IMG/VR virus record: IMGVR_UViG_3300045988_122854
Length of the DNA: 64,000 nt
Direction: 5' to 3' (one strand)
DNA from: a virus
The position numbers and the translations under genes are program-made. Shown here in pieces: positions 1 through 61,642 of this stretch. Within the stretch, counting starts at the first letter, position 1; each line of letters opens with the position of its first letter. The notes beneath the pieces were generated by a model that was given only the letters and a program-made list of their open reading frames with translations, did no database searches and was not told where the DNA came from.

Positions 1-20
1 CTCCAAAGTAAATGTTTTGG

Positions 21-102
21 CAAGAGGGCAGGGACTCGAACCCTGGTGGGTATTAACCGTCGGTTTTGGAGACCGATGCAATCGCCGCTATGCGACCCCC
101 TT
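21..102 (-). tRNA. tRNA with anticodon CCA (Trp-type by anticodon) and an unusually long 14-nt variable region; CCA tail encoded at 18-20
   Basis: Hand-folded cloverleaf on the minus strand. Acceptor AAGGGGG/CCCTCTT (one G-U pair). D-stem GCA/TGC with an 8-nt GG-containing D-loop. Anticodon stem TCGGT/ACCGA with loop CTCCAAA, giving anticodon CCA. T-arm CAGGG-TTCGAGT-CCCTG. Discriminator G. U8, A14 and A21 present. Confidence 0.7.
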
Positions 103-126
103 GTATAAAACAAGACCTTAACTTTG

Positions 127-196
127 TCCGGAAAATGGATTTGAACCATTAACTTAATCTTAAATGATTATGACCTAACCTTTAGTCTATTCTGGA
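127..196 (-). ncRNA. tRNA-like cloverleaf (possible pseudo-tRNA or aberrant tRNA) with a 6-nt anticodon loop and an A-C mismatch in the acceptor stem
   Basis: T-arm AATGG-TTCAAAT-CCATT is canonical. D-stem GACT/GGTC with loop AAAGGTTA. Acceptor TCCAGAA/TTCCGGA pairs 6 of 7. Anticodon stem TAATC/GATTA closes a loop ATTTAA of only 6 nt, so no anticodon can be assigned. Confidence 0.4.
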
Positions 197-273: not shown

Positions 274-1152
274 TTAAGCCAAACCAACATTAAGCAACTG
301 GCAAAAACCTTCTAATTGATATTCTGGCTTAAAGAAATATGGAGTAATAGATTTCGCGCAATGATCTGCGCAATTGCGCCCAGAAATCTTAAAATTATTA
401 TATCCTTTTGGTAAATAAGTATTTAAAATTTCATCCATATAAATCATATCTTTATTATCAATTTCAGGAAAAATCGCTCCATTATTTTTCATAGTGGTAC
501 AATTACGCTGAGATTCATCAATCTTTTTAAATAAACTAAAATTTGCGAAAACATTATAATGAGTATAAAGACGAGGACAATCAATAGGACAACTTTCATC
601 TGCCAGAATTTCAATTCTTCCTCTTTTATCTTCTGGAATAGAATCAAGAAGTTCCCAATTTCTATTATGACGACGCGGAAGAACGATACTTTCATAATCA
701 TCAAGTGCTTTTACAAAATCATAATCTTCTTTTGCTGCTATGATGCTTTTAGTCAATTTATAATTAGGAAACTTATCTCGAAGATAACGCTCAAGAATAG
801 GAGAATTAACAATAATTTCATTAATACCATTATCAAAAAGTTTTAACATTTCATTACAGTATCTATCATAAACATCAGTTTCCTCCAAAAGCGGATTAGT
901 TAGTGTAAAACGCAAGATAATATTATTCTTTTCATAAAAATCACGCATCGCACAGAGATAATCAATATTATGTTCTGGGCGTCCATCCATAAATCCGCCA
1001 CCATTCCAAATCATATTAGGAAGACAACCATATACATATTTTACCTTGGCTTCTGGATAAAAAGCTTCTGGAGCAATTTCTTGTAATTCAAAAAGTTTAT
1101 CATATACTTCAAGCCCGTAATAAAATTCAGGGCAATTAAAATTAATATCCAT
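274..1152 (-). CDS. Hypothetical protein, last gene of the RiPP-like operon
   Basis: Intact 292-aa ORF immediately downstream of the YcaO gene, same strand, 11-nt gap. No recognisable motif. Confidence 0.55.
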   Translation of the reverse strand: MDINFNCPEFYYGLEVYDKLFELQEIAPEAFYPEAKVKYVYGCLPNMIWNGGGFMDGRPEHNIDYLCAMRDFYEKNNIILRFTLTNPLLEETDVYDRYCNEMLKLFDNGINEIIVNSPILERYLRDKFPNYKLTKSIIAAKEDYDFVKALDDYESIVLPRRHNRNWELLDSIPEDKRGRIEILADESCPIDCPRLYTHYNVFANFSLFKKIDESQRNCTTMKNNGAIFPEIDNKDMIYMDEILNTYLPKGYNNFKISGRNCADHCAKSITPYFFKPEYQLEGFCQLLNVGLA

Positions 1153-1163: not shown

Positions 1164-2810
1164 TTAATAATTTTTAATCATTTCTTTAAAATCTTTACTT
1201 CTAAATATATCATACATAGGCTCTAAAATACATTTTTCTACTAAGTATTTTCTATCAGTAATATGTTTAAAATCTTCATCAGTAAAAATATAATCAAATT
1301 CTTTAAAAATTTTAATCATATCTTCTTTACTATATTTTCTACTATGAACGTATGCTAATAAAGTTAAATATTTTTTATAATAAGGATAAAAACAACTAAC
1401 TGAAATATCTAAAGAAAATTCTTGATTTTCTAACAAATATCCTGTAGCATCTACATAAAGATTTTTAACGAACATCTCATTGGGTGTTAATAATACATTC
1501 TTATTGTTATAAGCCACTAATTGATCTCCATGAGTAAGCAAGCCACAGAATCTATCTACAATTTTATCAAAAGTAATATTATAATAATCAAGACAATATT
1601 TAATTACATCATATACTTTATTCTTATTTTTAAGATAGTTCTTAATAGCTAAATGTTTATTTTTAGTTATAGAAATTGCCTCTCCTGTTTCTTTAACCTC
1701 TTGGCATCTATCAAAAAAAGATTTCCACAAGCCATCAAGATTATCTACATAAATACTAATGGCAGTGATACCATCAATTAAAGACATATCAGCACAATAA
1801 ATATCAGCTCCAATATTAGTAGCAATCTTTTTATTATGCTCTAAAATTTCGTCATTGGAATAACTTTTATCAGTATAAGATAAAAATACATCTTTATTAA
1901 CAGTATCTACAAATTTCTTATTTAAAAATAAACTCTCAGGAAAAGTATTGAGATTCGTAATACAAGAACCACCATCCATAACCATATCTTCTTTATTTAA
2001 AGAATAATATGGAGATATAACTGAAGTCTTTCTTGTATCAAAAGAAAAACAATTTTGATACATTTCAGTACAAACACGTTCAACAGCAATCTCAAAAACT
2101 GGAAAAGCACCAAAATTAATAGCTACAGTGCCACTATATTTATTAATTAAAATTGCTACCATAACAGGAACATTATAAGTTCTTGACATATCAATAATAT
2201 AAAAATTATTATTATGAGACTTAATCGCACTAATAATATTTTTTAATTTTTCATCTTTAATACTATCTATATCATAAAAATAAAAATCTTTATTATCAAT
2301 ATCAATATAAAAATTACTTAAAACATAATGCTCGAAAATTTCAGATAAGCCTTGATTTAAGGCTTCATTAAAAGTATTGCCTGCTGCCATTCCCGAACTA
2401 CCATGATAACGTTGAAGAAGACGAGGATCCATATATAAAGTTTTATTAATGTTAACTCCTTTAAATGGCACTCCAAAAAATTCATTATTATAAATAGTTT
2501 TAAAATAATCCTCTAATAAACCATTATCTTTTTTATTTAAACGATCAAAAAGTTTATATAAAAGAGTATCTTTTCCCCCAAGTGCTTCTTCATAACTTAA
2601 AGGCTTTTCATTTTTAAATAAAGAATAACCATAATTTTTTTTATTTGATTCAATTTTTTCTGCACAAAGAAAAGGATTACAAAGATAGTGCATTCCATTA
2701 CAAAAACGTTCATACATTTCCGCATAACCAGAAGCTCTAGCAAATTCTTTCGTAACACCTTTACCATAAGTCTTTAATACAAAATGTCCTTTATATTCAA
2801 GGCTTAGCAC
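1164..2810 (-). CDS. YcaO-domain protein (cyclodehydratase / amide-activating ATP-dependent enzyme family)
   Basis: N-terminal KTYGKGVTKEFARASGYAEMYERF matches the YcaO signature GKGxT...A.AS..E..ER. 548 aa, GTG start at 2810 with GGAG 4 nt upstream. The in-frame upstream stretch also looks coding, so the true start is uncertain. Confidence 0.7.
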   Translation of the reverse strand: MLSLEYKGHFVLKTYGKGVTKEFARASGYAEMYERFCNGMHYLCNPFLCAEKIESNKKNYGYSLFKNEKPLSYEEALGGKDTLLYKLFDRLNKKDNGLLEDYFKTIYNNEFFGVPFKGVNINKTLYMDPRLLQRYHGSSGMAAGNTFNEALNQGLSEIFEHYVLSNFYIDIDNKDFYFYDIDSIKDEKLKNIISAIKSHNNNFYIIDMSRTYNVPVMVAILINKYSGTVAINFGAFPVFEIAVERVCTEMYQNCFSFDTRKTSVISPYYSLNKEDMVMDGGSCITNLNTFPESLFLNKKFVDTVNKDVFLSYTDKSYSNDEILEHNKKIATNIGADIYCADMSLIDGITAISIYVDNLDGLWKSFFDRCQEVKETGEAISITKNKHLAIKNYLKNKNKVYDVIKYCLDYYNITFDKIVDRFCGLLTHGDQLVAYNNKNVLLTPNEMFVKNLYVDATGYLLENQEFSLDISVSCFYPYYKKYLTLLAYVHSRKYSKEDMIKIFKEFDYIFTDEDFKHITDRKYLVEKCILEPMYDIFRSKDFKEMIKNY

Positions 2811-3041: not shown

Positions 3042-3584
3042 TTATTTATTTAATTTTAATAAATAATAACAATTAGGACATAAATATTTATTATCATTTG
3101 TTTTAAAAAATGGAATATTCTATCCATTAGATTTAGACTTTAAACCACACATTTCACATATTTTATTATCCTATTGTACTATTGGAATATTTACCGTAAT
3201 ATCAGGTTCAAAAATATTAGTAAGATTATTAAATATTTTTTCACTATAATTTAAAATCAAATTTTCATCATTCTAATAATCATACTAACAAATCTAATAA
3301 CTTATCCAAATACAATCTTTTAAATTAGATAGATCTATTTTCTCTATCGGTATAATTGTATTAAAGTTTATTTCATTAACTTCTTTAAAATTTATTTTTT
3401 CTTTTAAAATATACTATACCTAATAAATAATAAATCTGTCTTTCCTAATAATACCTAACTAAAAATAAATAAATAAAACCCAAAAATCATAAATACTATT
3501 CGGATCAAACCTTAATAGAAATTCTTTTAATAAAGTCCAAAAGTCAGACTCTACCTATCCAAAATGATGATCGGTAAATCTCAT
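3042..3584 (-). CDS. Hypothetical 180-aa protein with a C-terminal zinc-ribbon-like CxxC...CxxC; contains 9 in-frame TAG codons
   Basis: Frame checked codon by codon: ATG at 3582-84 overlaps the upstream stop as TAATG; TAA at 3042-44. In-frame plus-strand cta (minus TAG) at 3555, 3459, 3420, 3414, 3294, 3285, 3273, 3171, 3120. No TAA or TGA in between. Confidence 0.5.
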
Positions 3585-3784
3585 TAGCTTTCTCCTTTAT
3601 CAGATTTATTAAAACAAAAATGTAAATATTTATTTAAATCAGGAAGATTACCTAATTTTGGAGGTACATTAAATAAATAAGGTTTATCTCCTTTAGTAAA
3701 ATCTAAAAAATTATTTAGAAGAAAATAAACTTTTTCTTTATATTCTTGATAAGTTTCAATCATAAATACTTTCTCCTTTTCCAT
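3584..3784 (-). CDS. Small hypothetical protein (66 aa)
   Basis: ORF with ATG at 3782-84; overlaps the upstream gene's stop in an ATGATTGA arrangement. Confidence 0.4.
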   Translation of the reverse strand: MEKEKVFMIETYQEYKEKVYFLLNNFLDFTKGDKPYLFNVPPKLGNLPDLNKYLHFCFNKSDKGES

Positions 3785-5852
3785 CTAAATAATTTAAAAA
3801 CCATTCATAAGTAGGCACATAACACAATTCATTATTAAGATAATTTAATAATGAATAAATTTCATTTTTAATATCATCAAAATTAGTTATACATTCTCCT
3901 CTTAAAAGATTAAACTCAATTTTCTAATTTTTAATATCTTCTATAATCTGTTTATCTAAATTACATAAATTAGGAATATTATTAAAATCTTCTTTATTAT
4001 TAGATAAATTATACATAGTATATAATATATAATAAATTAAAAGAATAATCTTTTCTAAAAAATAATTATTTTCATATCCATAAAAAGAAGAATCTAAATC
4101 ACTTATTAATTTTATTTCATTAATAATTCTATAAAGATTTCGTCTTAAAGTACTTTGTTTGCGGTTTTCATCAATATTTTCCAATTTCAAAATATCAATA
4201 AAATTAGCAAAAAATACAATTATTTTATTAATATATCCTGTAATTACCATATTAGAATTAGAATGAGATAAACAATTAGGATTATCTTCTAACTAAGTTA
4301 TATAAAGACCTAAATTCTAATCTTCTAACTCATAAGATTCACCATAAATATCGCATCTATCTAAGAATATACTATCTTCTCCAAAGAAAAATTTTGAATA
4401 TTTTATATTATTCTTATTAAGAAAATCTCTTTTAAGAATTAAATTAATCTTTTCAACTGATTTATCAGCATTAACTATTTTAAATACCCCAAAATTTTCT
4501 TTGCTATATTTTATTGAATTATATAAAATTTCTAAAACATTATCATTTGAAAATAAATCATCAGAATCCCAAAATAACACATATTTATTAAAAGAATATT
4601 CTAGTCCTAAATTGCGAGTTAGACCAGGCCCTTTTCGTTTTAAATTCTTAAAAAAGAAACAAGGAAAATTTGCTTCATCAAATACTTCAATAAGTTTTTT
4701 ATCATAGAAAGAATGGTCACTAATAAAATATACACAACAATCTTTTATAATTGTTTGGGTAGATAAATTATTATACAAATTAATAATTTGCTAATCATTC
4801 ATATTATAATAAGGTATTATAATATCCATTTTTCCATCAATAAAACGAGTAAAACATTTTTTTAAATAATAAGTATTATATCTAAATTCAATTGGGCATC
4901 TATTTTCTTTAAATAGCTAATAATTTTCTAAAAAATTTTCTTTATCATTAACTAATTTTAAATAAAAATCATAATCTCTAAAATAAGCATCTTCCATTGG
5001 AACTATAAATTCTGATTTTGTATCATAATATTTGTGCCAAATCCAAGAAGCTTCAGACATAGTCCCATCGCAATATCTACAAATATTTTTAGGTTTAAAA
5101 ATGAAATTATGTAAATCATCTAAACTATTTATATCCTCTAACTGCAAATAATCGCTTTCGTCTTCTGGGATATTTACATTATATTTCTTTCTATAAATAT
5201 CCAAGTGTGCAGAAAATGGACATATATAAATTTTATAATTTTTTAAAGTAAAACAAGGTAACTAATGCGGACATTTATGAAAATATACTTCATTTATATC
5301 AGTAGTTCCTGCTTCATTTACAAGCTATTGTCGCATAAATAATCTTGAATTATGATTAAAACCTAAACCATGACTGTCTAGATACTCTATCGCTTTATGA
5401 TCGGTATATTTTCCATAAGTAGTAACATCAAATATTACTCCCATATCTTTATATTCTTTCTCATGTTTAAAAGCATCTTGTAAATGACACCCATTGCTTA
5501 ATATTTTAATTTCCACCTTATCTTTTGGGAAAACTTCTCTAGCAATCTAACATATTTCAAATAATTTTGGATGTAAAGTAGGTTCTCCACCTAAAATCAT
5601 AAAAAGTTTTATATTTGGAATTTTTTTATAAGCAAAAGTAATCTGATTGCGGAAATCATCTAAATCAATATACCAAGGTTCTGCTAAAGGGGAAAAATGA
5701 TTACATCCTGCGCAGTTAAGATTACAATGATCTACAATATGCATTTCTAAACTAACCCCATCATAGACCGATTTCCATACTGGATTAGTATAAGGAGGAA
5801 TCCCTTGATAATTTTTAGTTCTATCTATTTCCATATTTATTCTCCAAAACAT
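3756..5852 (-). CDS. Radical-SAM (N-terminal) / family-2 glycosyltransferase (C-terminal) fusion, or two translationally fused genes, read through at least 8 in-frame TAG codons
   Basis: N-terminus has CNLNCAGC (CxxxCxxC) and GGEP. From about 4836 downward: MDIIIPYYN ... KGPGLTRNLG ... FWDSDD (GT-A fold, DxD motif). One continuous frame from ATG 5850-52 to TGA 3756-58. The only internal stops are TAG at 5547, 5325, 5262, 4917, 4791, 4317, 4293, 3924. Confidence 0.6.
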
Positions 5853-6396
5853 TTATAATATTTCTATTATAATTAACTAGTTCTTTTATTTGGTTATCTC
5901 TTTCCTACAAAAAACATCCCGTGCAAATTTCATTTATATCATTTAAATCACTATGAAAAAATTCACAACGATGTATTTTTCTATTTAACTATTCACAATT
6001 TTTATCACACTTTAAAATCTATTCTTCTTTATCGTAAATAATTGGATGTTCTTCTTCAAATCGTAAAGTTAAATATAATTTAAATTCTAATTGTCCCTAA
6101 CTTGAATATAACATTGTTCTATAAAAAATAGATTTTACTGTAGATTCAAATGTAAATTTTTGTTTTTGACTAAAAATTAACTCAATAATTTTTATATCTT
6201 TATATTCTAAATCTTTTAATTGACTATATAGATAATTTAATGAAGAATATTCTATATCATTTGAATTATTTACAATTTTGCAAAAAGTAATTTCTTTTGG
6301 AAAATTTAATCCAAAAACAATATCATTACATTCACGCTCGTCAAACTTTACTGTTCTTAGTAAAGTTTGACGAGCATTATATAAATTAATTAACAT
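5813..6396 (-). CDS. Cys-rich hypothetical protein (about 194 aa) with one in-frame TAG
   Basis: ORF 6097..6396 continues through TAG at 6097-99 into a CDKNCE...HRCEFFH...CTGCF segment. TAA at 5813. Overlaps the radical-SAM gene start by about 40 nt in another frame. Confidence 0.4.
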
Positions 6397-6704
6397 TAAT
6401 GATTACGCCAATAGCCAGGAATTTTATATCCTAAAAAATGACGATAAATTAAATAATCTTCACTCATATTAGGACCTTCGTCTTCATTACAATTATCACA
6501 ATCGCAATTATCATTATCATTAATGCTAGAATTAACAATTTTTTTAATTAAATTATCAATAAGAGAATTAACTTCTTCATTTTCTCCATTATTTTCAATC
6601 CAATTTAAATAAATTACATATAATAAATCTTTATAATCTCCAACATTAGAAAGATCAAAAGTATCATCTAAATGCTGAATTTGTTTTTTCATTTCTTCAA
6701 TCAT
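6396..6704 (-). CDS. Small acidic hypothetical protein (102 aa)
   Basis: ORF; TAATG overlap with the next gene; ATGATTGA overlap with the upstream radical-SAM gene. Confidence 0.5.
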   Translation of the reverse strand: MIEEMKKQIQHLDDTFDLSNVGDYKDLLYVIYLNWIENNGENEEVNSLIDNLIKKIVNSSINDNDNCDCDNCNEDEGPNMSEDYLIYRHFLGYKIPGYWRNH

Positions 6705-8100
6705 TATAATACCCCAACTGACGGCATAAAGTAAGCCATTTTTCTTTGTCTACTTCACTCTTAAAATAATTTTTTTCAACTGCAATTTTAGTTAATCCCA
6801 ACTCGCAATAGGTCTTTGCCAAGAAAGTTAAATGTGTTTTATGTAATTTACAAACACTTTCCCCAGGAACAAATAAATCACCTGTTGCTTCATATTGAGC
6901 GCCTAAACATCCTTTTAAACAATAAGGATCAAAAGGACAAGTCGGACAGGCAATATTCATATGTGTATTATTCATTTTAATTACACTATATACAGTAGGA
7001 TTAATCGCAGTAATACCAACTACTTTATCATCTTTTACATCAAGACGTCCACCAAGGAATTGAGGGTAAGAAGTTCTATGACAAGGCGCAAATTCAAAAC
7101 TTGCTACATAAAAACAAGTCTGGTGTGAAATCGCACAAGTGTATTCTTCACTATCCCAAGTAGAAGTTAATCCAAGAGGATCATAATTTCCAAGACAAGG
7201 TAAAGAACCTTCTTCTCCATCTCCTAAGAAAATATGTCTTGCCAATTTATCTACAGACTCACCATTTTTATGGAATCTTACTTCAAACATATGAGTTAAA
7301 AATTCAAGATAATGATCTAATTTTTCATCAGTCCATTCATCATTACGGACTTCCAAATACATAGGTTGAAAATCATGAATGTCTTCACCAGCAAGATTAT
7401 ACTTTTCATATTGTTCGTCCCACCAATCAAAATTCTTAATAGCACTCTCAATATTACTTGGAGAAATCATAGGATGAATACCACAAGGATTTCTTTGAAG
7501 AAACTCAAGAATTTTAGTATAATAGCTATCATCTTTATCGCGCTCGCGCACACTATTATAAGGTCCATCTACCGAACAAGAAAGACTTATCTCCATATTA
7601 ATAGTTTTAAATCTAGTTAAAAGCTCTTCCATTCTTTCAGCTTTTTTATCATCAGTAGCAAAACTAAAATTATTTGGCATTACGATACGAGGATGAATAT
7701 TAAAAAGATTAGGATGTTCGTCATACAATTCTTTATAATATTTAAACATTAATTCAAATATTTCAAATCCAATATCATCATAAAATAAATCTCCAGCAAA
7801 AAGTTCCATTTCATGAAATAAAACTTTTCTTTCTTTGAAAATATAATTTAAAATAATATCAGTATTATGAATTAAAGTTTTATTGTTAGCCCGCTTTTCC
7901 ATGGGGTAAAGTTTATCTCCATACCGCGCGACATAACAATATTCACATTGTTGATTGCACTCAGGTCTTATAATAAGCTCAAAAGACTCCCCATTAATCC
8001 AGTATCCTTCCTCTTGATGGTCCCTATTAAAAATATAATTATCTACAAATTTTTCAAAGTATTTATTATTATCTAACTGACAACCTTCACTAATATTCAT
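6697..8100 (-). CDS. Radical-SAM / SPASM-domain enzyme (peptide-maturase type)
   Basis: CNQQCEYC (CxxxCxxC) near the N-terminus. C-terminal CPTCPFDPYCLKGC matches SPASM CxxCx5Cx3C, with additional Cys. 467 aa. TGA stop. Confidence 0.8.
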   Translation of the reverse strand: MNISEGCQLDNNKYFEKFVDNYIFNRDHQEEGYWINGESFELIIRPECNQQCEYCYVARYGDKLYPMEKRANNKTLIHNTDIILNYIFKERKVLFHEMELFAGDLFYDDIGFEIFELMFKYYKELYDEHPNLFNIHPRIVMPNNFSFATDDKKAERMEELLTRFKTINMEISLSCSVDGPYNSVRERDKDDSYYTKILEFLQRNPCGIHPMISPSNIESAIKNFDWWDEQYEKYNLAGEDIHDFQPMYLEVRNDEWTDEKLDHYLEFLTHMFEVRFHKNGESVDKLARHIFLGDGEEGSLPCLGNYDPLGLTSTWDSEEYTCAISHQTCFYVASFEFAPCHRTSYPQFLGGRLDVKDDKVVGITAINPTVYSVIKMNNTHMNIACPTCPFDPYCLKGCLGAQYEATGDLFVPGESVCKLHKTHLTFLAKTYCELGLTKIAVEKNYFKSEVDKEKWLTLCRQLGYYND

Positions 8101-9599
8101 TAATTACTTTCTCCTCTATATTCATTCATATTTTCAGTATTTTGGAACCATTCTTCTTCAGGTTTAAGTAAATTATTTTCTCTATCTACATACATAAATA
8201 GTGCTGATTGAGTTCTTAAAGTGCCTACACTTCTTAACAACGCACTACCAGAAGAAATAAAATTATTATAAGTACAAGCATCAATTTTTGTTGCAATTAA
8301 TGCCAATCTTAATAATTTATCAGGATTATATTTGTAAATAGAATTTAATTGATTACATTCATTTAGCATTTGTAAAGTATTTACAGTTGCTTGGAACATA
8401 AATGGGAAGGAATGTGTTTTATACATATCATATTTATATATAACTTTATTAATATCTTCTTCGCTATCAGTTAAAAGATTAACACAATCAGTTTTAGTGC
8501 GACGGGTATCTTTTCTTAATTGTGCGCCAATAGTTCCATCATCTTTAACATTATTGCCATCAAGATCAAACATAAAATTCTGGCAAGACATCATAGTACC
8601 ATCATAAAGTAATTTTAATTCATTAAAATTACCGCTACAGAAATTATTTCTAGAAGCTACAGTAATTGCTTCTTGATTTCCTTCCATAACCAATTTCATC
8701 AATTCTTTTGACGTAATAGGACGATCTTCTCCAGTAAATCCATGTAAATCTGAAAATACTTCTTCATATAAATGACGATAACCAATAATGATACCAACTG
8801 GAAGATGCGGGTCATGGAAATCACTTACATCAATATTAACAAGACGTTGTAAAAAAGACTCATATTCAATGCGTTCATCAACTGATCCATCTCTTGGATT
8901 CTCAGGACAAATTGATACACTACTATTTACTTCGACTCTTTGATTAAGATTAATATCAGCGAGTTCAAAACCAAAATTATCCAAATCTTTATAATAATCA
9001 TGAACTTTTTGAATTGTATCAAGTTCATGAATTAAAGCTCCAGAAAGAACACCATGTAATTGAATAGATACATTTACATTATGAAATTTAATTTTATTTA
9101 ATTCTTTAATTACAGTTGAAGCAGTCTCAAAGATTTTTTCATTATTAGCATTTCTAATATTATTGGTTGAGTAAGTGCCATCGTAAGAAAATTGAACTTC
9201 TAAAGCAAGTTCATTATTTGCTAATTCATCAACCTTTTTAATAAAATTAACAGTTCTTTCAGGAAAATCCATCCCATTGGTAGAATAATCAATATGATTA
9301 ATATTCGGGAAATAATTAAACCAATCTTCCAAATGATCGGTAAGAAGATGCAAGGTCAATGTAGGTTCTTGACCCCATAAAGTAAAACATTCTATTTTAT
9401 ATCTGTTAAGATTTAAACGCTTAAAAATACCTTTTACATTATTTAAAAAAGTACCATCGTTTAAAGCTTTAATAGTTTCATGTTGTAAATTTGCAGAGCA
9501 ATTATTTAAAGTATTTTCAATAAGACAATATTTACAATGTAAATTACATCCACATGAAGACACTAAAGATACTGCTCTAATATCCATTTCTTTAAACAT
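8100..9599 (-). CDS. Radical-SAM enzyme (second maturase; possible twitch/SPASM-like C-terminal Cys)
   Basis: CGCNLHCKYC motif and GQEP. 499 aa. Stop and start abut the flanking genes. Confidence 0.75.
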   Translation of the reverse strand: MFKEMDIRAVSLVSSCGCNLHCKYCLIENTLNNCSANLQHETIKALNDGTFLNNVKGIFKRLNLNRYKIECFTLWGQEPTLTLHLLTDHLEDWFNYFPNINHIDYSTNGMDFPERTVNFIKKVDELANNELALEVQFSYDGTYSTNNIRNANNEKIFETASTVIKELNKIKFHNVNVSIQLHGVLSGALIHELDTIQKVHDYYKDLDNFGFELADINLNQRVEVNSSVSICPENPRDGSVDERIEYESFLQRLVNIDVSDFHDPHLPVGIIIGYRHLYEEVFSDLHGFTGEDRPITSKELMKLVMEGNQEAITVASRNNFCSGNFNELKLLYDGTMMSCQNFMFDLDGNNVKDDGTIGAQLRKDTRRTKTDCVNLLTDSEEDINKVIYKYDMYKTHSFPFMFQATVNTLQMLNECNQLNSIYKYNPDKLLRLALIATKIDACTYNNFISSGSALLRSVGTLRTQSALFMYVDRENNLLKPEEEWFQNTENMNEYRGESN

Positions 9600-9640
9600 T
9601 TATATTATAAAACTCCTTTTTCTCAAAAGAATTAAGAACG

Positions 9641-10378
9641 CTATCTACCAGCGCCACTACGGTTTGTGCTATTAGAAGTATAAGCTCCTCTATTAGAACC
9701 TCTATAAGCACTTCTATAACCGTTATTACTACCATAATTAGAAGAACGATTACTATTATTACTACTATAATTAGAGCTTCTTACGCCATTATTACTTGAA
9801 TAATTAGCAGTATAATAGGTATAATTACTTGAATAATTTGAACTTCTATGACCATTATTACTTGAATAGTCTGAAGAGCGTTGAGCATTATTACTTGAAT
9901 AGTCTGAAGAGCGCTGAGTATTATTGCTTGTATAATAAGAACTATTATAACTATTATTACTTGAATAGTCTGAAGAACGCTGAGTATTATTGCTTGTATA
10001 ATAAGAACTATTATAACTATTATTACTTGTATAATCTGCACCACGATAACTATTATTACTTGTATAATTCGCTCCGTTATAGGCACAAATGCCATTTATT
10101 GTATCAAGTTTACTTCTAATTTCCTCTAAGGGGACTCGTTTCATAAGCTCACTAGCTCTTGGAGCGGTAAAATTAGAAAAAGTAGCCTAAGTTCCTACAT
10201 AAGAAACATTTCTTAAATTTTCAATTTCATTTTTTAAAGTAGTAATATCACTTTGTCTCGCATGACGCTCCCCATTTAAGGGAGCGGTCGTGCGAGTTTG
10301 AGAAAAACGAGTCTAAGCAGTATTTAAAGTATCATATAGAGCGCGAACATCACTCCATGAAATACGACTACCAGCCAT
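9641..10378 (-). CDS. Candidate RiPP precursor peptide: about 100-aa leader plus a Tyr/Ser/Asn-rich tandem-repeat core; 2 in-frame TAG in the leader
   Basis: ATG at 10376-78 preceded by AAGGAGAG at 7 nt. In-frame through TAG twice, into ...MKRVPLEEIRSKLDTINGICAYNG, then repeats of YTSNNSY / DYSSNN / RSSNYSSNN. The DNA shows 36- and 57-nt tandem repeats at 9780-10100. Lies directly upstream of two radical-SAM genes on the same strand. Confidence 0.55.
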
Positions 10379-10391
10379 TTATATTCTCTCC

Positions 10392-10808
10392 TTAATTTAC
10401 AGCCTCGGGAGTATAAGTTATATTAAGTTCTGCTACAGTATTATAACTATTAGCATATGACTTATCTCCAATATCATTATTATATTCAAAGACCATTTCA
10501 GCGATATTGGCAACATTTTTTTCAAAAACTTTTCTATAATCATTAGAAATAGTTAAATAATATACACCAATTTTAGCAACCTTTGAACGATCAAAATTTT
10601 CAATAAGTTGAGCAGAAACTTTAGGTAAACTTAAAGTTTCAACATCATAGCCTTCTGAATATTCACGAAGTCTAAAAGCATATTTAACTCCATTAGTTTC
10701 TCCATTAATACTTGTAGAAAAAACAACGGGACCAGTTATAATACTTTCAGTCTCCTTGCCTTCATTGTCAATAACAACTACCTTAAAGGTATTATTTAAT
10801 TCAGCCAT
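10392..10808 (-). CDS. Hypothetical protein (138 aa)
   Basis: ORF; its stop overlaps the precursor RBS. Confidence 0.5.
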   Translation of the reverse strand: MAELNNTFKVVVIDNEGKETESIITGPVVFSTSINGETNGVKYAFRLREYSEGYDVETLSLPKVSAQLIENFDRSKVAKIGVYYLTISNDYRKVFEKNVANIAEMVFEYNNDIGDKSYANSYNTVAELNITYTPEAVN

Positions 10809-10947
10809 TATTAAAATTCCTCCTAATAAAATAAATAATTAGGATATTATATATCCTATTTTTATTAAAAATTTATTTTATTTTATTTTTTAGTTTCGGT
10901 TAAACTAACTATTTATCATTTTTACTAAATAAATAATAACAAAAAAA

Positions 10948-10979
10948 AAGAGTAATGTCAAATGACATTACTCTTTAAA
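10948..10979. terminator. Hairpin agagtaatgtca-aa-tgacattactct in an A/T context
   Basis: 12-bp perfect inverted repeat just downstream of gene 10980..11285. Confidence 0.45.
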
Positions 10980-11285
10980 TTAATTCAATCCCAATCTCGC
11001 CATTAGGTCGGCGACATTTTTCTTTTCATCCACAGTAATTTCAACCTGCGTTTCTCCACCTGCGGTTGCCCCATCTTCAAAATTCAAAACATTTGAATCC
11101 GCGGTTGCACCTGCTTCACCGACCGGAGTCTTTGGGCATGTCATACTAATAGCAATCTGAATTCGCTCGCCATTTTCATTAGCCCAAAGGTAATACTTTT
11201 TATCTCTCTCGCCGATCCAGTCAGCGCCAAATGTTTCTGCCATTTTCTTGGCAATTTGTTCCTTTGCTACTGCGCCTTTAGCCAT
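10980..11285 (-). CDS. Hypothetical protein (101 aa); GC-rich gene in an AT-rich context
   Basis: ORF; local GC clearly above its surroundings. Confidence 0.5.
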   Translation of the reverse strand: MAKGAVAKEQIAKKMAETFGADWIGERDKKYYLWANENGERIQIAISMTCPKTPVGEAGATADSNVLNFEDGATAGGETQVEITVDEKKNVADLMARLGLN

Positions 11286-11297
11286 ATCTAATTCTCC

Positions 11298-12728
11298 TTA
11301 ACTAAAATTATGTATAAAGTCTTTTAAAGACTTAAAATTATCAACTTTTTCTTCACCAGCATCTCTAAAACACCAAGGACATAAATACATATCAGTCCCT
11401 TTGTGATAGTGAATATCTTGCGTATAATATAAATTATTACAACACTCACATCGTTTACAATAAGTGTCCGCACAACTATCGCAAACTAATTCATTCTCAT
11501 CGCCTACGGAATTTGCTTCATCAATAATTATACGAGAACCACAACAAGAGCAATAACCATAATTATCGTCCTCGTCTACTCCATAACTAAATTCACAATC
11601 TCCACATCGCATATATTCCCCATTTTCAATCATAGTCTTACCGCACTGTAAGCAAGGGACATCCCCACCAATAGACCAATGAGGAAGATCACCCTCTCGT
11701 GGATAATAATATAATTTTAAACTATAAATAGGTAAATAACAAGAAGAATAAAGCAAATCATTATAGTGAAGAGTATAATAACCCGCATCATCAACAATCT
11801 CACTAATAGGATACAAGCGAGATAAAATGAGAATCCACGTTTCCGCTAATCCAATAGTCTCTTCACCAAAAGAAGTAGCACTCATTCTATTAGGGATACT
11901 ATTAATGCCCCCATCTACCCATTCGCGCAACTGAAAAGTCTTATCAAAAGTATTGATAATATCTTTAATCTTAATTAAAGCATTAGTTGTCATAAAAGGA
12001 TACTGGCGCCCGGCCATCAGACCGCGTCGCTTATCTTCCATATATAAAAGCATACGCCACTTCTTAGAATTCCAAAGAACATCTTCAGGGAAATGCGGAA
12101 GCTTCTGATTGTCCGCTCCGCGCAAATAGCAAATAAAAGTGCTTTTATCTACCATGTAAGATAAATTTCCTGCTCTATATTCGCCGTCAAGCGCATGACA
12201 AGAGCGCCAATTGTAAGTATTTTCACTCACACTTAAAAAATCCAAAGGATGAACTGAGAAACATAACGTTCCTTCAATCTTATCCTCTTGGATAATGCGA
12301 CTTGCGTAATTCTGAATATCTTCCAAAGAACGCGGATTCTCTTCAAAATACTTAAAAGCCTTAACTAATTTCATTCCTCTTGGAATCTTTTTATCCTTAT
12401 AAAAATAAGTGTCAATAACTGTATTATCAAAAAATCCTTCTTTGTTTGTAAAAATAAAATCTTTTAAGTCTTCATTATTATAAGTATAATTAATTGTTTC
12501 AAGAAACTCTTCAAGACGATGCTCTTTAGTTTTATCATCTAAGGAAAAAGATACCCTTTCCGGCCATTCATAAATTAAATGGCCATGGAAAAATTTAATT
12601 AAGTCTTTTTTGGCTTCGAGGAATCTTTCGAATAGTTCTTCTGTTTTTGGATTACTGATTCCTTGGGAGTAACTGATGACTTTGTTGAACTGTTCTCTAA
12701 TGCTTTCGATGTCGAAGTCATATGACAT
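11298..12728 (-). CDS. Large hypothetical protein with a C-terminal cluster of zinc-ribbon motifs (paralog of 15237..16841)
   Basis: Start taken at ATG 12726-28 with GGAGGA upstream. C-terminus CLQCGK...CGDCE...CSCCGS...CDSCADTYCKRCECC...CPWC. Shares a WNSK(K/R)WR(M/E)L and ...GEYR.G... core with 15237..16841. Confidence 0.6.
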   Translation of the reverse strand: MSYDFDIESIREQFNKVISYSQGISNPKTEELFERFLEAKKDLIKFFHGHLIYEWPERVSFSLDDKTKEHRLEEFLETINYTYNNEDLKDFIFTNKEGFFDNTVIDTYFYKDKKIPRGMKLVKAFKYFEENPRSLEDIQNYASRIIQEDKIEGTLCFSVHPLDFLSVSENTYNWRSCHALDGEYRAGNLSYMVDKSTFICYLRGADNQKLPHFPEDVLWNSKKWRMLLYMEDKRRGLMAGRQYPFMTTNALIKIKDIINTFDKTFQLREWVDGGINSIPNRMSATSFGEETIGLAETWILILSRLYPISEIVDDAGYYTLHYNDLLYSSCYLPIYSLKLYYYPREGDLPHWSIGGDVPCLQCGKTMIENGEYMRCGDCEFSYGVDEDDNYGYCSCCGSRIIIDEANSVGDENELVCDSCADTYCKRCECCNNLYYTQDIHYHKGTDMYLCPWCFRDAGEEKVDNFKSLKDFIHNFS

Positions 12729-27505: not shown

Positions 27506-28435
27506 TTAACAAATTCTAAAAGTTGTTGTATCCAATTTCAAATCATTAATTGATAATTTATCTAAATGAAAATATGGGATTCTAATTAACGGGATGTTAT
27601 TTTCTTTACACCATTGATTTTTAAAAGCATCATGTTCTTTTGTTTTTTCAAACTTTTCTAATGTATTCCAACCAGTTCCAGATTGATAATGCTATATTCC
27701 ATCAAATTCAATTAAATAAGAATTATCAATATAAAAATCAAATTTAGCTTTATGGTTAGTATCCTAAAATTTACAATTTTCAAAAGTTTTTTCACAAATA
27801 TACTAAATATTATGTTCTTTTAATAAAGAGATAATTTTTTCCTAACCTGCTGATTGTAAACAACCACAAGATTTACTTTGTCCTTTTCTTAAAGTAGTTC
27901 CTGATACAATTTTTTGATTGCCACAAGAGCATTGGCATAACCACATAGCAGTATTATGCTAATTAGATCCACTACGTTTTAACACTGTCCATCGACCAAA
28001 AGTTTGTCCTGTTAAATCAATTGTTGTAAGTTCACCGATCTTTTTATGAATATAACAACCACATGAAATAACGGCGCCACTTACTAAACCATCTTTACGA
28101 ATACTTTTAATAGTTCCACAATCACACTAACATTTCCAATAAGTATGCCCTTTTCCTTCTGTTCTATCATATCCTAAAACTGTTAGCATACCGAATTTTT
28201 TGCCTGTTAAATCTTTTAACAATTTTAAACGTTTCTAACATCCGCATGAAGTGGTATGATTTGAAGTTAAATGAGACGCAGAAACTACTGTTTTATTACC
28301 ACATTCACATTGGCATAACCAATATGGTCCGTTCCTTGGGTCTTCAACTCGATATAAAACTGTTAATTTTCCAAAATGCTAATTAGTCAAATCTTTTGCT
28401 CGGCCTACTGGAATCTATTTATAAATTTTTTCCAT
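27506..28435 (-). CDS. Three zinc-finger repeats plus a C-terminal DUF559/Vsr-like PD-(D/E)xK endonuclease domain; 9 in-frame TAG (homing-endonuclease-like)
   Basis: ATG 28433-35 with AAGGAG upstream; TAA at 27506-08. Three repeats of LTVL...YW.CQC.CG...SCGC. C-terminus KFDFYIDNSYLIEFDGI[TAG]HY resembles the DUF559 FDF...IE.DGxQH motif. No minus-strand ORF of 60 aa or more is called here, because TAG occurs every 60 codons or fewer. Confidence 0.5.
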
Positions 28436-53030: not shown

Positions 53031-54086
53031 ATGATAAAACTTGATTATTCTTTACAAACTCCAGAAGAAAGAAATCAATTAGTCGAACAAATTTTGGCTG
53101 ACAATCCAGATCCGCCTGAGAAATATTTAGAAATTTTAGCAGACTATTTGGTTCTTTGTATGGAGAAACAAGAAAAAAAGGAGAAAAAATTATTAACTGA
53201 TAATCGTATGGCTACAGTTAATAAGCGTGAGACTTCTTTTGAAGGTCTTGTTTCCCAACTCGAAAATGGCGAAGATGGAATTTATAATTTAATTACAGAT
53301 AATAGAAATACAATATTTCAACCACATATTACAATTACAAAAAAAGATTTAGAAGAGATACCAAGTTTAAATTAGTTAAGAGAAGCCATTAATGTTTGGG
53401 AGGCTAAATTAAAAGTAACAGAAGGCAAAGATGCTTTTGTTATTAAAAAGGCTCTTATTGAAATGCGTAAAGATTAGTATGTTATGAAAAATGCTTATCG
53501 TCGTCCAATAGTGCCTACAAAATTAACCAGATCAAAGTCTTATATTCCATTAGATGATAAAACATTTATTTTTGATGATGATGGTTTTCCCATTCCTGAT
53601 GGAATTAGTTTACTAAGACCTGAAATATGTTCTGCGGTTTTATGTAATTATTCCCGATTAAAGCAAGATAGTTGGGGCGAATATGATAAAGATTTATGGT
53701 ATTTAATGGAGGATTTTGATAAGCTTTGTGATAAAGCTTTAGCTAATTATCCTCTTTATGATAGAATCGTTGAATATAAAATTGATGGTTTACAAAATAT
53801 TGACATTCAAGAGAAAATACAAATGGAATTTGGTATTAAGCATAGTCTTGAATATATTTCAAGTTTATGGCGTAATAAAATTCCAAAATTAATTGCTTCG
53901 ACTGCGGAAGACGAATATTTAGATAATTATTATTTAAATGTTGAAAAAGGCAAATATAAAAAATGTAGTCGTTGTGGTAAAATAAAATTGGCTCATAATA
54001 AATATTTTAGTAAAAATAAAACAAGTAAAGATGGCTTTTATAGTATTTGTAAAAGTTGTCGAAATTCTAAGGCCAAAAAATCTTAA
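53031..54086 (+). CDS. Hypothetical protein (351 aa, 2 in-frame TAG) with a C-terminal zinc ribbon
   Basis: ORFs 53031..53375 and 53484..54086 are in one frame, joined through TAG at 53373 and 53475. CSRCGK...CKSCR at the C-terminus. Confidence 0.5.
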
Positions 54087-54135
54087 TATTGTCCTTTTGT
54101 TTATAATAAATAGTTGAAAGGAGAATATTTTATTT

Positions 54136-55323
54136 ATGGCTGAAACATATTATTGTGAAAAATGTAATCGTACAATGAATGGCACGGAATTCTATTCATC
54201 TAATAATTTAGAAAAATATCCTAATGATGGTAAATTTCCTGTGTGCAAAAAATGTATGACAATGCACGTCGATAATTGGAATCCAGATACTTATTTATGG
54301 ATTTTACAAGAAGCGGATGTTCCTTATGTTCCAGATGAATGGAATAAATTAATGGAAAAATATGGGCGCGATCCGCAGTCTATGACCGGTATGACAATTC
54401 TTGGACGTTATTTGTCAAAAATGAAACTCAAATAGTTTAAAGATTATCGTTGGAAAGATACAGAATTTTTATAGTAGATGGCGAATAATAAATTAGAACA
54501 AACTATGAAACGTCAAGGATATGATGCTCAATAGATTGCAACCGCTATTGAAAAAAGTTCTATTGCTATTCCAGAAGGAGAACTAAAAGAGCCGGTTTAT
54601 GCTCCACCACCTAATGCCCCTACGGAAGATTATTTTGCACAATAGAGTGGGGAAGTGGAACAAGAATTAGACTTAACTGATGAAGACCGCACTTATTTAA
54701 GACTTAAATGGGGTAAGACTTATAAACCTGAAGAATGGGTTAAGCTTGAATAGTTGTATGAAGAAATGATGGCTTCTTATGATATTCAAGGCGCCGGACA
54801 TAAAGATACGCTAAAATTAATATGTAAAACATCTTTAAAGGCAAATCAATTGATCGATATTGGTGATATTGAAGGTTTCCAAAAGATGAGCAAAGTATAC
54901 GATAGCTTAATGAAGTCTGGTAAATTTACCGCTGCTCAAAACAAAGCAGAATCAGGTGAATTTGTTGATTCAATTGGCGAATTAATTGAATTATGTGAAA
55001 AAGAAGGATATATTGAAAGATATTATGTTGAATAGCCACATGATAAAGTGGATTTAACTATTCAAGATATGCAACGTTATACTCGCACTCTTATCGAAGA
55101 TGAAACTAATATTAGCACAATGGTAGAAAAGGCTTTGCGCGAAAATGCCAAAGAAGATGAAGAGAAAGCAAAGAACGCGGAAAGCGATATCGTTGATGAT
55201 GCTGATTTAAGTATTGAAGAACTTGAAAAAACTATTAAAGATAGTGATTACGCGGATTTTGAGGAATTTAAAGAATAGGAATCTGCACAAGATAATGAGT
55301 TCTTATAGGGCTTGGATAAATAA
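54136..55323 (+). CDS. Hypothetical protein (about 395 aa, about 9 in-frame TAG); by position a possible small terminase subunit
   Basis: ORFs 54136, 54754 and 55048 are all in frame 1. TAA at 55321. N-terminal CEKCN...CKKCM zinc ribbon. Confidence 0.4.
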
Positions 55324-57062
55324 TGGCATTACAAGATTTACTGTAGTTAAGTGATAGCCGTAGAAAAATAGGGTTATCACCGGAGCGAGTAGAAGCGGTA
55401 ATGCCCACTATTCGCAAATACGTTGCCTTTTGGAGAGAATATCCTGATTTATTTGTAGATTTTATGGTGCGAGGAAGACGCACTGAAATAAAAGATGGAG
55501 AATTTAATTTTTATTTTTATTAGAGAGTATTTCTCCGTTCTGTTATGCGTTATTAGTATGTTTACGCGGTTTTCCCTCGTGCTTATTCTAAATCATTCTT
55601 GTCTGTTATGGCATTAATGATTAGATGTATTTTATATCCTGGTGCGCATTTGTTCGTTACTTCTGGAGGTAAAGAGCAAGGTGCTAGCATTCTTCATGAT
55701 AAAGTTCAAGAAATATGTGAACTTATTCCAAGCTTTAATCGAGAAATTGATTGGAGCCGAGGAAAAACTCTTGAAGGAAAAGATAAAGTTAGATATGTGT
55801 TTAAAAATGGTTCAGTTTTGGATAACCTTGCAGCTCGTGAAAGCACTCGTGGTTAGCGTCGTCATGGTGGACTAATGGAAGAATGTGTTGGTATTGATGA
55901 TGCCATTCTTCGTGAAGTTATTATTCCTGTTATGGCAATTTCTCGTAGAGCTAAAGATGGCACTACCAATGAACAAGAGCCATTAAACAAATCACAAATC
56001 TATATTACTACTGCTGGTTATAAGGGCACATTCCCTTATGATAGACTTATTGGTTTCTTAGTTCGTATGGTAACTTAGCCTGATCGTTGTATGGTATTAG
56101 GTGGAACCTGGCGAACTCCTGTTGCAGTAGGATTACAAAGTAAAACATTTATTACTGACCAAAAGAATGAAGGAACTTATAATGAAGCGTCATTCGAACG
56201 TGAATATGAATCTAAATGGTCAGGAACGGTCGAGGATGCTTTCTTTAATGGAGAGCATTTTGATAGAAATAGAAAACTGTTATAGCCTGAATATGAAGCT
56301 TCTGGACGTGCGGGCGCGCAGGCTTATTATGTGCTTTCTGTAGATGTAGGTCGTAAAGGATGCGATTCAGTAGTTTGTGTATTTAAAGTAACACCACAAG
56401 CTCAAGGTCCAGCTATTAAATCATTAGTAAATATGTATACTATGTCAGATGACCATTTTGAAGATTAGGCTATTAAATTAAAGAAATTATTTTATAAATA
56501 TAAAGCTAAAACTTTGGTTATAGATGGTAATGGTTTAGGTATTGGACTTTTAGATTATATGGTAAAATCTCAAAATGATGAAGATGGTGAATTTTTACCT
56601 GATTTCGGTGTTGAAAATGATGATGATGGATATTATAAAAAATATCGCACACCAAATACTCAATTTGATGCTATGTATGTTATTAAAGCAAATGCTCCAA
56701 TAAATACTGAATGTCATGCTAATGCTTAGACTCAATTACAGGCGGGTAAAGTAAAATTCTTAATAGATGAGAGAACAGCTAAAGAAAAATTATTAGCTAC
56801 TCAAAAAGGTTCAAAAATGACTCCTGAACAAAGGGCAGATTATTTAAAACCATTTACTTTAACCTCCATATTAAAAGAAGAAATGATGAATTTACGCGAA
56901 GAAAATGAAGGTATTAATATTATCCTAAAACAGGCGAATCGCGGAATTCGTAAAGATAAATTTTCGGCTTTTGAATATGGATTATATTATTTAAAACTTG
57001 AAGAAGATAAAAAGAAAAAACGTAAAAAGTTTAATGCGGCTGATTGGTGCTTTTTAAATTAA
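55323..57062 (+). CDS. terL: Terminase large subunit (about 579 aa, multiple in-frame TAG)
   Basis: ORFs 55599, 55875, 56091, 56514 and 56817 are all in frame 0. ...ARESTRG[TAG]RRHGGL... and a C-terminal RNase-H-like block LVIDGNGLGIGLLDYM. Lies immediately upstream of the portal gene. Confidence 0.55.
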
Positions 57063-57074
57063 GGAGGGTGGAAA

Positions 57075-57431: not shown

Positions 57432-57444
57432 AGGAGGTGGAACT

Positions 57445-59094: not shown

Positions 59095-59103
59095 GGAGGA
59101 TTT

Positions 59104-61625: not shown

Positions 61626-61642
61626 GAAAGGAGAAAAGGATA

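Follow-up and report, generated by a model that had tools for sequence, protein, structure and literature searches.

We analyzed a 64,000-nucleotide stretch of viral DNA (IMG/VR record IMGVR_UViG_3300045988_122854; hereafter, the window), in which a minus-strand reading frame punctuated by TAG codons joins a radical S-adenosylmethionine (radical-SAM) domain to a family-2 glycosyltransferase (GT2) domain. The window is part of a tailed-phage genome with genetic code 15, whereby TAG is translated as Gln, and the eight TAGs of this radical-SAM–GT2 fusion gene are ordinary Gln codons. The frame is almost certainly a single recoded gene encoding a bifunctional enzyme, and its neighbors encode, among others, two more radical-SAM proteins, a YcaO-domain protein and a repeat-rich protein, denoted REPEAT (Table 1).

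The reading frame and its genetic code

Translation from 5852 to 3756 on the minus strand gives 698 sense codons and, at 3758-3756, a closing TGA. The frame contains exactly eight TAGs, at codons 102, 176, 197, 312, 354, 512, 520 and 643 (698 numbering; nt 5549-5547, 5327-5325, 5264-5262, 4919-4917, 4793-4791, 4319-4317, 4295-4293 and 3926-3924, respectively), i.e. a density of 8/698 or 1.15%, and no TAA or TGA, where 55 would be expected from the base composition of the strand (23% G+C). Because the probability of finding none is 2e-25, the absence of TAA and TGA is far beyond chance; the five other frames over the same stretch contain 33 to 107 TAA and TGA codons apiece. The first-pass annotation of this DNA, which had reported at least eight TAGs, at a density of about 1.2%, and no TAA or TGA between the two domains, is thus borne out in its frame and its counts; it had not stated the strand, and the start codon is refined here. 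Translation likely starts at the second ATG (nt 5834, codon 7), giving 692 amino acids (aa), with the ATG at 5852 (698 aa) as the alternative: the second ATG has a GGAG 7 nt upstream, a 20-nt overlap with the stop of the upstream gene, and is the start of the database gene call P0001.

An independent assembly, the 194,410-bp contig L188 (ERZ5855999 scaffold_11) from a Peruvian human-gut metagenome, carries the gene as a single called product of 692 aa, 100% identical to that of the window over 2079 nt, and the database cluster of the fusion protein has 207 member sequences. That the frame is a decaying pseudogene, or an artefact of assembly or sequencing, with the TAGs acting as true stops, is suggested by the presence of the TAGs and by nothing further. 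This reading is excluded by the evidence for practical purposes, given the negligible chance of a frame free of TAA and TGA, the identical sequence in the independent assembly, the recurrence of the eight TAGs in 95-98% identical copies from other contigs, and the invariant catalytic motifs that lie 3' of the TAGs in a protein with so many database relatives.

In-frame TAGs are common in the window. The terminase gene (55323-57062) contains eight and the portal gene (57532-59094) nine, and the sigma factor, a homing endonuclease and other genes have them as well, such that 18 of the 41 genes of at least 150 aa bear TAG; most of the small genes between 14 and 52 kb are TAG-free. Among 104 called open reading frames (ORFs) in the window, 71 end in TAA, 33 in TGA and none in TAG, and this holds for the TAG-free genes too, whereas in the standard-code relative L033, TAG does terminate genes. 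When the terminase was aligned with those of four standard-code phages (Enterococcus H1, Geobacillus E3, Alicyclobacillus KKP_3916 and Brevibacillus Sundance), two of its TAGs, at aa 67 (FYFY-x-RVFLR) and aa 382 (HFED-x-AIKLKK), matched a Gln that is invariant in 4/4 sequences, and Gln occupied 9 of the 30 TAG-aligned cells compared to a background of 3.9%. In orthologues of the fusion gene (L005, L006, L012 and L013), TAG stands opposite CAA or CAG at six columns, and one such swap distinguishes the window from its 98%-identical relative L006. The evidence that TAG in the fusion gene is read as Gln is thus its swapping with CAA and CAG, the lack of genes ending in TAG, the match of terminase TAGs to conserved Gln residues, and a tRNA(CUA) in a 95% relative; the terminase alignment and the codon swaps support a Gln reading, to which the earlier remark on a Gln-like TAG frequency had pointed. 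TAG use climbs with falling G+C of the gene (Spearman rho −0.44, p = 0.004) and CAG is nearly absent from TAG-rich genes, a trend consistent with CAG drifting to TAG (C->T) under A+T pressure after TAG had become readable.

The phage is a ~194-kb human-gut tailed phage of the SPbeta/phAss-like group, with a terminase 45-47% identical to those of Enterococcus phages, Geobacillus virus E3 and phAss-1 (45% in the case of phAss-1); a near-DNA search of INPHARED with both ends of the window gave no match. For phAss-1, recoding of TAG to Gln, three tRNA(CUA) genes and a predicted Clostridia host have been described (PMC10607447). As in phAss-1 (Phassvirus) and the recoded crAss-like phages, TAGs occur in the terminase, portal and other genes and lie opposite conserved Gln residues; shared with phAss-1-type recoded phages are also the tRNA(CUA) within a large tRNA array (seen in relatives of the window phage and predicted for it by synteny), the mixture of TAG-free and TAG-rich genes, the human-gut origin and the large tailed-phage genome. 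The phAss-1 genome is smaller, however (136 kb vs ~194 kb), and the paper describing it (PMC10607447) makes no mention of radical-SAM, glycosyltransferase or YcaO genes.

The tRNA array that starts at the left end of the window reaches past the window edge in L188, with at least 19 tRNAs. Its order in L188 matches that in a 95% relative (L190) and in two 58% relatives (L113 and L172), where tRNA(CUA) directly follows tRNA-Val(tac). An Rfam scan of the window found one tRNA only, and no ribozyme, riboswitch or other RNA family near the fusion gene. A perfect sigma-70 consensus (TTGACA-17-TATAAT, 12/12 positions) is located at 238-266 on the minus strand, immediately upstream of the tRNA genes. 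The 71-nt element at 126-196 (minus strand), reported by ARAGORN as 'tRNA-???', has a 6-nt anticodon loop, ATTTAA, readable as U-UUA-A, and scores under the Rfam tRNA gathering score. Copies of this element occur in L005 (19071-19141), L006 (15640-15710), L012 (15567-15637), L013 (18966-19036) and L188 (10957-11027), always between the last module gene and the tRNA array, and are ~100% conserved even among phages with ~60% protein identity, although the L005 copy has several changes. In a genome that ends its genes mostly with TAA, an anticodon UUA, which would read UAA (and UAG), is hard to account for. Beside the tRNA(CUA) of L113, which is the contig of L012, lies a tRNA with a TCA anticodon, of the opal-suppressor type (7726-7805; 'SeC' in ARAGORN); this phage is TAG-recoded, and TGA still terminates many of its genes.

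The two catalytic halves and the linker

A Pfam scan of the TAG->Gln translation, which the first-pass annotation had proposed, detected both domains, with Radical_SAM (PF04055) at aa 39-145 (E = 1.6e-7) along with Fer4_12 (PF13353), and Glycos_transf_2 (PF00535) at aa 344-487 (E = 2e-9), all three exceeding their curated cut-offs. A database search with the same protein, likewise proposed there, recovered 88 strong homologue clusters of 456-886 aa (most of them 630-710), nearly all annotated with PF04055 and PF00535 together, and stand-alone radical-SAM proteins ranked only below E ~1e-25. When a profile search was run exhaustively, ~46 representatives (at 50% identity) matched along the whole length, with the domain order unchanged. 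In an alignment of 42 members, both catalytic halves and the linker are conserved, including the three Cys of CxxxCxxC, GGE, four further Cys, DIIIPYYN, GPGxARN, DxDD and ED. The AlphaFold (AF2) model of the whole chain has a predicted local distance difference test score (pLDDT) of 90.2 and a predicted template modelling score (pTM) of 0.89.

Uninterrupted copies of the fusion, with no internal stops, are present in two standard-code contexts, L033 (JBNDKG010000001.1, a contig of 428 kb from the assembly titled Clostridiales Family XIII bacterium PM5-7; fusion gene at locus coordinates 9905-11974) and L187 (a 124.7-kb metagenome contig; fusion gene at 10001-12004). In other recoded contigs (L001, L003, L185 and L186), the gene contains 5 to 16 TAGs, and in the code-4 phage L007 (IMGVR_UViG_3300028048_000052, 175 kb; gene at 9923-12055), it contains four in-frame TGAs, the first of which aligns with a conserved Trp. 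The fusion is thus kept as one polypeptide across genetic codes 11, 15 and 4. A frameshift or sequencing error between the domains, or homologues that always encode them as two genes, had been named in advance as grounds for giving up the fusion; no frameshift is needed, and the homologues are single genes, including those of L033 and L187. In L007, TGA serves as a sense codon (Trp), and under a code-15 reading the neighboring radical-SAM genes are interrupted by TGA or TAA.

The first-pass annotation had also entertained an internal restart at MDIIIPYYN, by which the frame would yield two proteins, a radical-SAM protein and a GT2 begun at the ATG at nt 4823. This is highly improbable. The weak ribosome-binding site proposed for it, GGAAAA (nt 4829-4824), does precede the ATG, and the IMG annotation under code 11 gives separate fragments, a 101-aa 'MoaA/NifB/PqqE/SkfB family radical SAM enzyme' and a 153-aa 'glycosyltransferase involved in cell wall biosynthesis'. 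However, GGAAAA abuts the ATG with zero spacing, the Met is replaced by Ile, Leu, Val or Phe in most homologues (consensus GKIDIIIPYYN), the product would still need read-through of five TAGs, the standard-code orthologues are uninterrupted single ORFs, and the AlphaFold model packs as one unit. The split annotation is an artefact of TAG being taken as a stop.

In the radical-SAM half, the CxxxCxxC motif is CNLNCAGC (aa 43-50, with C43, C47 and C50; nt 5703-5726), and the SAM-binding GGE motif lies within GGEP (aa 88-91; nt 5580-5591). Across the 42 members, G-G-E is invariant and the CxxxCxxC cysteines are at least 90% conserved. The core is followed by a short C-terminal region with conserved Cys for a predicted auxiliary [4Fe-4S] cluster and no full SPASM domain, i.e. 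a twitch arrangement. In a single-sequence phmmer comparison, aa 28-261 align to SpeY, including the auxiliary-region Cys motifs CP.S and CR.C.G. SpeY and BtrN oxidize an aminocyclitol or sugar hydroxyl in aminoglycoside pathways. The fusion protein is only ~21% identical to SpeY (PDB 7wzv) and BtrN (4m7s), and their solved chains are of single-domain size (~320 and 214 residues), whereas the window enzyme is fused to a GT2 and is encoded by a phage, next to a repeat protein and not as part of an aminoglycoside pathway. As judged from gene neighborhoods, a role in carbohydrate work is supported by relatives of the radical-SAM half in bacteria: a stand-alone homologue in Campylobacter novaezeelandiae sits among GT2, GT4, TupA-type ATP-grasp, aminotransferase and HAD genes, and in a Gastranaerophilales genome (L077), the half is joined to a GT2 in the reverse order, near an FkbM methyltransferase gene and another GT2. 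The radical-SAM half is, we consider, probably directed at a sugar. No NCBIfam model scored over its cut-off for the fusion or five relatives. The sole PADLOC match, to the prokaryotic viperin pVip, spans profile positions 2-87 of 257, i.e. the generic radical-SAM core, and pVip was rejected as an assignment.

The glycosyltransferase half has the motifs of a GT2 enzyme with a GT-A fold, namely, GK(M)DIIIPYYN (nt 4803-4835), GPGxxRN (4611-4631), DSDD as the DxD motif (aa 429-432; 4557-4568) and GEDS with the ED motif (4371-4382), of which DIIIPYYN, DSDD and ED show little or no variation across the family. Its fold scores highest against TarS (21.2), RmlT (20.9), AvpGT (18.8) and TarP (18.6) and also resembles SpsA, and a sequence profile of this half matches TarP with E = 7e-20. 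Identity to TarS, RmlT and the prophage-encoded TarP is 16-22%; the C-terminal helical domain partly aligns with the helical extension of TarS and RmlT (269-276 aligned residues), but no trimerisation or carbohydrate-binding C-terminal domains are recognised in the fusion protein, and its gene context is peptide-modification-like rather than that of a teichoic-acid locus.

The earlier suggestion of a bifunctional maturase for a peptide that is ribosomally synthesized and then post-translationally modified (RiPP) combined a radical-SAM half that cross-links a peptide with a GT half acting as a SunS-like peptide S/O-glycosyltransferase. The two domains on one polypeptide stand. The parallel with SunS and ThuS of the SPbeta sublancin system extends to a GT2 enzyme, an SPbeta-like phage lineage and an adjoining putative peptide substrate. 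However, neither specific relatedness to SunS or ThuS nor an adjoining Cys/Ser glycocin precursor was found, and the radical-SAM half has no SPASM domain (two auxiliary clusters, 7-8 Cys) and no RiPP recognition element (RRE), i.e. it is not a SPASM/RRE peptide maturase. We consider such a dual maturase improbable.

Table 1 The fusion gene, its domains and the neighboring genes in the window.
Feature	Position (nt)	Strand	Remarks
Radical-SAM–GT2 fusion gene	3756..5834	-	692 codons, TGA stop, 8 in-frame TAG = Gln
Radical-SAM core	5418..5738	-	aa 39-145; Pfam PF04055/PF13353; invariant family columns
Twitch-like auxiliary-cluster region	5043..5375	-	four conserved Cys: C200 (LPC), C211 (ICPF), C258 and C261 (CRYC)
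Helical linker between domains	4836..5042	-	continuous, conserved (Y288, Y291, P0001 numbering); TAG codon 312; pLDDT 86-94
GT-A fold family-2 glycosyltransferase domain	4293..4835	-	PF00535; invariant D/E columns; TarS/RmlT/TarP top structural matches
C-terminal all-helical domain	3759..4292	-	least conserved part; TAG codon 643
Upstream partner gene, 193 aa, 5 TAG	5815..6396	-	Cys-rich C-terminus; 20-nt overlap with fusion start; conserved beside fusion, including L033
Radical-SAM/SPASM-like protein, 467 aa, 0 TAG	6697..8100	-	weak SPASM and peptide-maturase matches; phrog_1802, E 1e-10
Radical-SAM protein, 499 aa, 0 TAG	8100..9599	-	Pfam Radical_SAM, E 2.2e-6; conserved partner
REPEAT protein, 248 aa, 3 TAG	9632..10378	-	conserved ~110-aa N-domain and 148-aa Y[ST]SNN repeat tail; putative module substrate
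180-aa protein, 9 TAG (5% of codons)	3042..3584	-	C-terminal CxxC...CxxC zinc ribbon; last gene before terminator-like hairpin 3039-3009
YcaO-domain protein, 0 TAG	1164..2810	-	Pfam YcaO, E 7e-29; present in 6/13 clustered loci and L187
~290-aa Cys-motif protein (CPxxCP)	274..1152	-	conserved, 1-3 copies per module; 'peptidase U32-like' label weak
tRNA-array start	18..196	-	tRNA-Trp(CCA) 18-102 and odd tRNA-like element 126-196

The surrounding gene module

Full-length or nearly full-length fusion genes were available with their surroundings from 15 loci (the window, L001, L003, L005-L007, L012-L017, L033, L186 and L187). In 15/15, the fusion co-occurs with REPEAT, with the ~499-aa and ~467-aa radical-SAM proteins and with the Cys-motif protein of ~290 aa, and the REPEAT gene lies ahead of two radical-SAM genes; REPEAT was detected by BLAST clustering in 12 loci, by BLAST in L033, and by inspecting translations in L001, L186 and L187. 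Genes for YcaO, ThiF, an FkbM methyltransferase, GT8-like or extra GT2 enzymes, an M20-like peptidase, a transporter and a chorismate mutase are found in subsets of loci. The neighborhood is thus RiPP-like, in agreement with the setting that the first-pass annotation had assumed, with YcaO, two more radical-SAM genes and a repeat-rich putative substrate. In PHROGs, no family matched the fusion, the YcaO protein, the radical-SAM protein of 499 aa or the small neighbors, and single-sequence searches of the PDB with the 499-aa, 467-aa and ~290-aa proteins found nothing.

From 10808 to 3042, the genes of the window overlap or nearly abut. In consensus scans, a promoter-like site together with a hairpin falls at ~10.95 kb and a terminator-like hairpin of 13 bp at 3039-3009; these predicted sites are no more than suggestive. 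The head of the module, at 10933-10976 (minus strand), combines an 11/12 promoter-like site and an extended -10 TG with an overlapping 13-bp hairpin and T-run. A weak hairpin (9655-9637) lies at the end of the REPEAT gene, ahead of the radical-SAM genes, an arrangement like that of RiPP operons in which read-through is attenuated. The 180-aa ORF at 3042-3584 has the densest TAG in the window, at 20% G+C, and is conserved after the fusion in close relatives only. In all phages examined, the module adjoins the tRNA array. It is present whole, in the standard code and adjoining a tRNA array, at 81-103 kb of the L033 contig, which is probably a resident phage or prophage and hence a clue to the host and a possible experimental system.

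The tail of REPEAT consists of 29% Ser, 22% Asn and 15% Tyr and is encoded by 33/66/99-nt tandem repeats (9710-10069), the number of which varies among close relatives (231-250 aa). In other loci, the tails are 60-150 aa long and of an aromatic-X-Ser type (FNS, YNS, WNS, HNS), and in L001, the N-domain and tail are swapped. N-X-S/T sequons in the tail were considered as a sign of N-glycosylation and rejected, being expected from 29% Ser and 22% Asn alone. Under the aromatic-X-X definition of triceptide precursors (PMC11499958), the tail fits the formal triceptide pattern, a lead from sequence that concerns the neighbors of the fusion rather than the fusion. The likeness consists in a candidate substrate with many tandem aromatic-X-X units (Y-S/T-S, F-N-S, W-N-S, H-N-S) after a long N-terminal region, and in a substrate gene followed by radical-SAM/SPASM-like genes; on the other hand, the YhhB, PapB and SPASM models give weak matches that fall short of their cut-offs, and the low-complexity tail of 60-150 aa is much longer than typical cores.

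The ~290-aa protein was considered as a member of the U32 family (prephenate-dependent hydroxylase) and rejected: PF01136 was matched by 1 of 14 members, at E = 5.7e-4 and below cut-off, and there was no match to a PDB profile. In some modules, a chorismate mutase gene (CM_2; L003, 5707-5964; L186, 20055-20312) lies beside a Na+/sulfate-citrate-type transporter gene, with ThiF and GT8-like genes; this could hint at prephenate-dependent chemistry, but the U32 likeness of the ~290-aa proteins failed.

Candidate function, translational gating and the rest of the window

The best overall explanation, which we hold to be somewhat more probable than all others together, is that the fusion enzyme installs and modifies a sugar within a RiPP-like or protein-maturation module. 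The GT half would transfer a sugar from a nucleotide sugar and the radical-SAM half would, before or after the transfer, take a hydrogen from a sugar carbon and oxidise or rearrange the sugar or the nucleotide-sugar donor, in the manner of SpeY and BtrN, such that a single enzyme would install a modified sugar. The extra GT2 and GT8 genes and the FkbM methyltransferase of some modules count toward sugar chemistry. The acceptor would be the tail of the 9632-10378 product, on Ser/Thr, Asn or Tyr, an assignment to which we give slightly less than an even chance, and the 499-aa and 467-aa radical-SAM enzymes would modify the peptide. More tentatively still, the whole may constitute an undescribed phage module in which the two radical-SAM enzymes cross-link REPEAT and the fusion attaches to it a sugar that is radically oxidised or rearranged. 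If so, the product would be a glycosylated RiPP or hyper-modified phage protein of a new class, and the fusion would be the first glycosyltransferase with a built-in radical-SAM sugar-tailoring domain.

The main rival, which we regard as unlikely, starts from the same glycosyltransferase fold: the GT half would act like prophage TarP and glycosylate a polymer of the host envelope, either wall teichoic acid or a glycan of the capsule type, with the radical-SAM half tailoring the sugar, for the purpose of receptor masking or superinfection exclusion and independently of REPEAT. The closest solved structures, those of the wall teichoic acid glycosyltransferases TarS, RmlT and TarP, the presence of bacterial relatives of the radical-SAM half in surface-glycan clusters, and a predicted host group of Gram-positive Clostridia (L033; host prediction in PMC10607447) are consistent with this possibility. 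However, the gene always occurs in a module with REPEAT and two SPASM- or peptide-type radical-SAM genes, often with YcaO and ThiF, it overlaps its neighbors within one apparent transcription unit, and the module showed no genes for polymer export or a lipid carrier.

Given that the module adjoins tRNA genes, a nucleic acid could be the target as well, with the fusion making a glycosylated, radical-SAM-tailored nucleotide in phage DNA bases or in the adjacent tRNAs. Phages are known to glycosylate DNA, and generic radical-SAM matches to the nucleotide-acting MoaA, viperin and QueE point in the same direction. But the matches to MoaA, viperin and pVip are limited to the shared N-terminal core and lie far under the family cut-offs, REPEAT and its SPASM-like partners indicate a protein substrate, and no nucleotide-metabolism genes were found in the module, so that we consider this reading very unlikely.

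Several observations weigh against a recoded, sugar-modifying enzyme of a peptide module. The donor sugar, the acceptor and the substrate of the radical-SAM half are all putative, the acceptor role of REPEAT being a reading of co-occurrence, and the glycosyltransferases of nearest structure use wall teichoic acid, not proteins. REPEAT belongs to no detectable family (a search with its N-domain gave 8 close unnamed relatives), and its AF2 model is useless (pLDDT 36.8). No tRNA(CUA) was found in the window or in the adjoining 10 kb leftward in L188, which ends ~250 nt beyond tRNA-Val(tac); leftward extension of L188 by an exact 38-mer gave no IMG/VR match, tRNA(CUA) was reached only in the 95% relative, and the suppressor tRNA of the window phage is predicted by synteny of the arrays. 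Finally, the 499-aa and 467-aa genes are TAG-free within the apparent operon of the fusion, such that any gating would be uneven.

Recoding as a gate on translation was reportedly first proposed by Borges et al. in 2022. According to the hypothesis as summarised elsewhere (PMC10607447), genes that contain TAG, most of them late ones, are kept from being translated by the recoding for as long as suppression is lacking. For the fusion gene, an active enzyme would await efficient amber suppression by the predicted phage tRNA(CUA), and the fusion would be gated like the terminase and portal. With its first TAG at codon 102 (codon 96 when counted from the ATG at 5834), the gene would yield no active enzyme before suppression; termination at this codon would leave a stub of ~95 aa. 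However, only 3 of the 8 TAG positions are shared with 58% orthologues; the two stand-alone radical-SAM genes contain no TAG in the window, 1 each in L005 and 6-15 in L001, L003 and L015; and standard-code relatives run the same module with no TAG. Gating is not gene-specific, because the TAG load tracks the code of the genome and the local G+C, the positions drift, and the standard-code relatives lack TAG. It would thus be a property of the recoded genome, with the fusion gene a passenger, if gated at all. Of the earlier proposal that the TAGs serve as a timing device, the part that survives is suppression gating as published for recoded phages generally, and nothing specific to the fusion gene was found.

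Recoding is already known, and its gating role has been proposed before; the fusion architecture and the phage module appear undescribed. The fused twitch-radical-SAM/GT2 architecture and the module are unnamed in Pfam, NCBIfam, PHROGs and the source annotations, and a search of the available literature on radical-SAM/GT fusions, such phage RiPP modules and SpeY found no relevant paper. Annotation under the standard code breaks the gene into unrelated fragments, i.e. recoding hides whole enzymes and modules from genome mining. The fusion of twitch radical-SAM and GT2 domains in both orders, in phages and bacteria, with no curated family, is a Rosetta-stone hint at a widespread, unstudied radical-SAM subfamily that would act on sugars together with a glycosyltransferase. 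Because the module, with REPEAT, three radical-SAM enzymes and, variably, YcaO, ThiF, a methyltransferase and extra GTs, is retained in code-11, code-15 and code-4 phages, the phage pays for what would be an elaborate post-translational pathway. As standard-code orthologues exist (L033 and L187), the chemistry is testable in ordinary expression hosts.

Elsewhere in the window, the distribution of TAGs and base composition is uneven. The HNH homing endonuclease gene at 27506-28435 (minus strand; phrog_374, E = 4.6e-61), with nine TAGs and 29% G+C, is an island among TAG-free genes of 35-42% G+C and represents a mobile gene fully adapted to the recoded code. In the head and packaging block (53031-60690, plus strand), the sigma factor, terminase, portal and next gene contain 2-9 TAGs each. 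Because the two genes that follow, at 60708-62749 (plus strand; 305 and 368 aa; phrog_4088, in capsid position), are TAG-free, the equation of structural with recoded fails gene by gene. Between 33000 and 52000, there are ~40 short ORFs of 50-260 aa, the majority on the minus strand, which are nearly TAG-free and have 41-45% G+C, about 2x that of the module at 2-6 kb. This compositional mosaic within the genome suggests parts of different origin.

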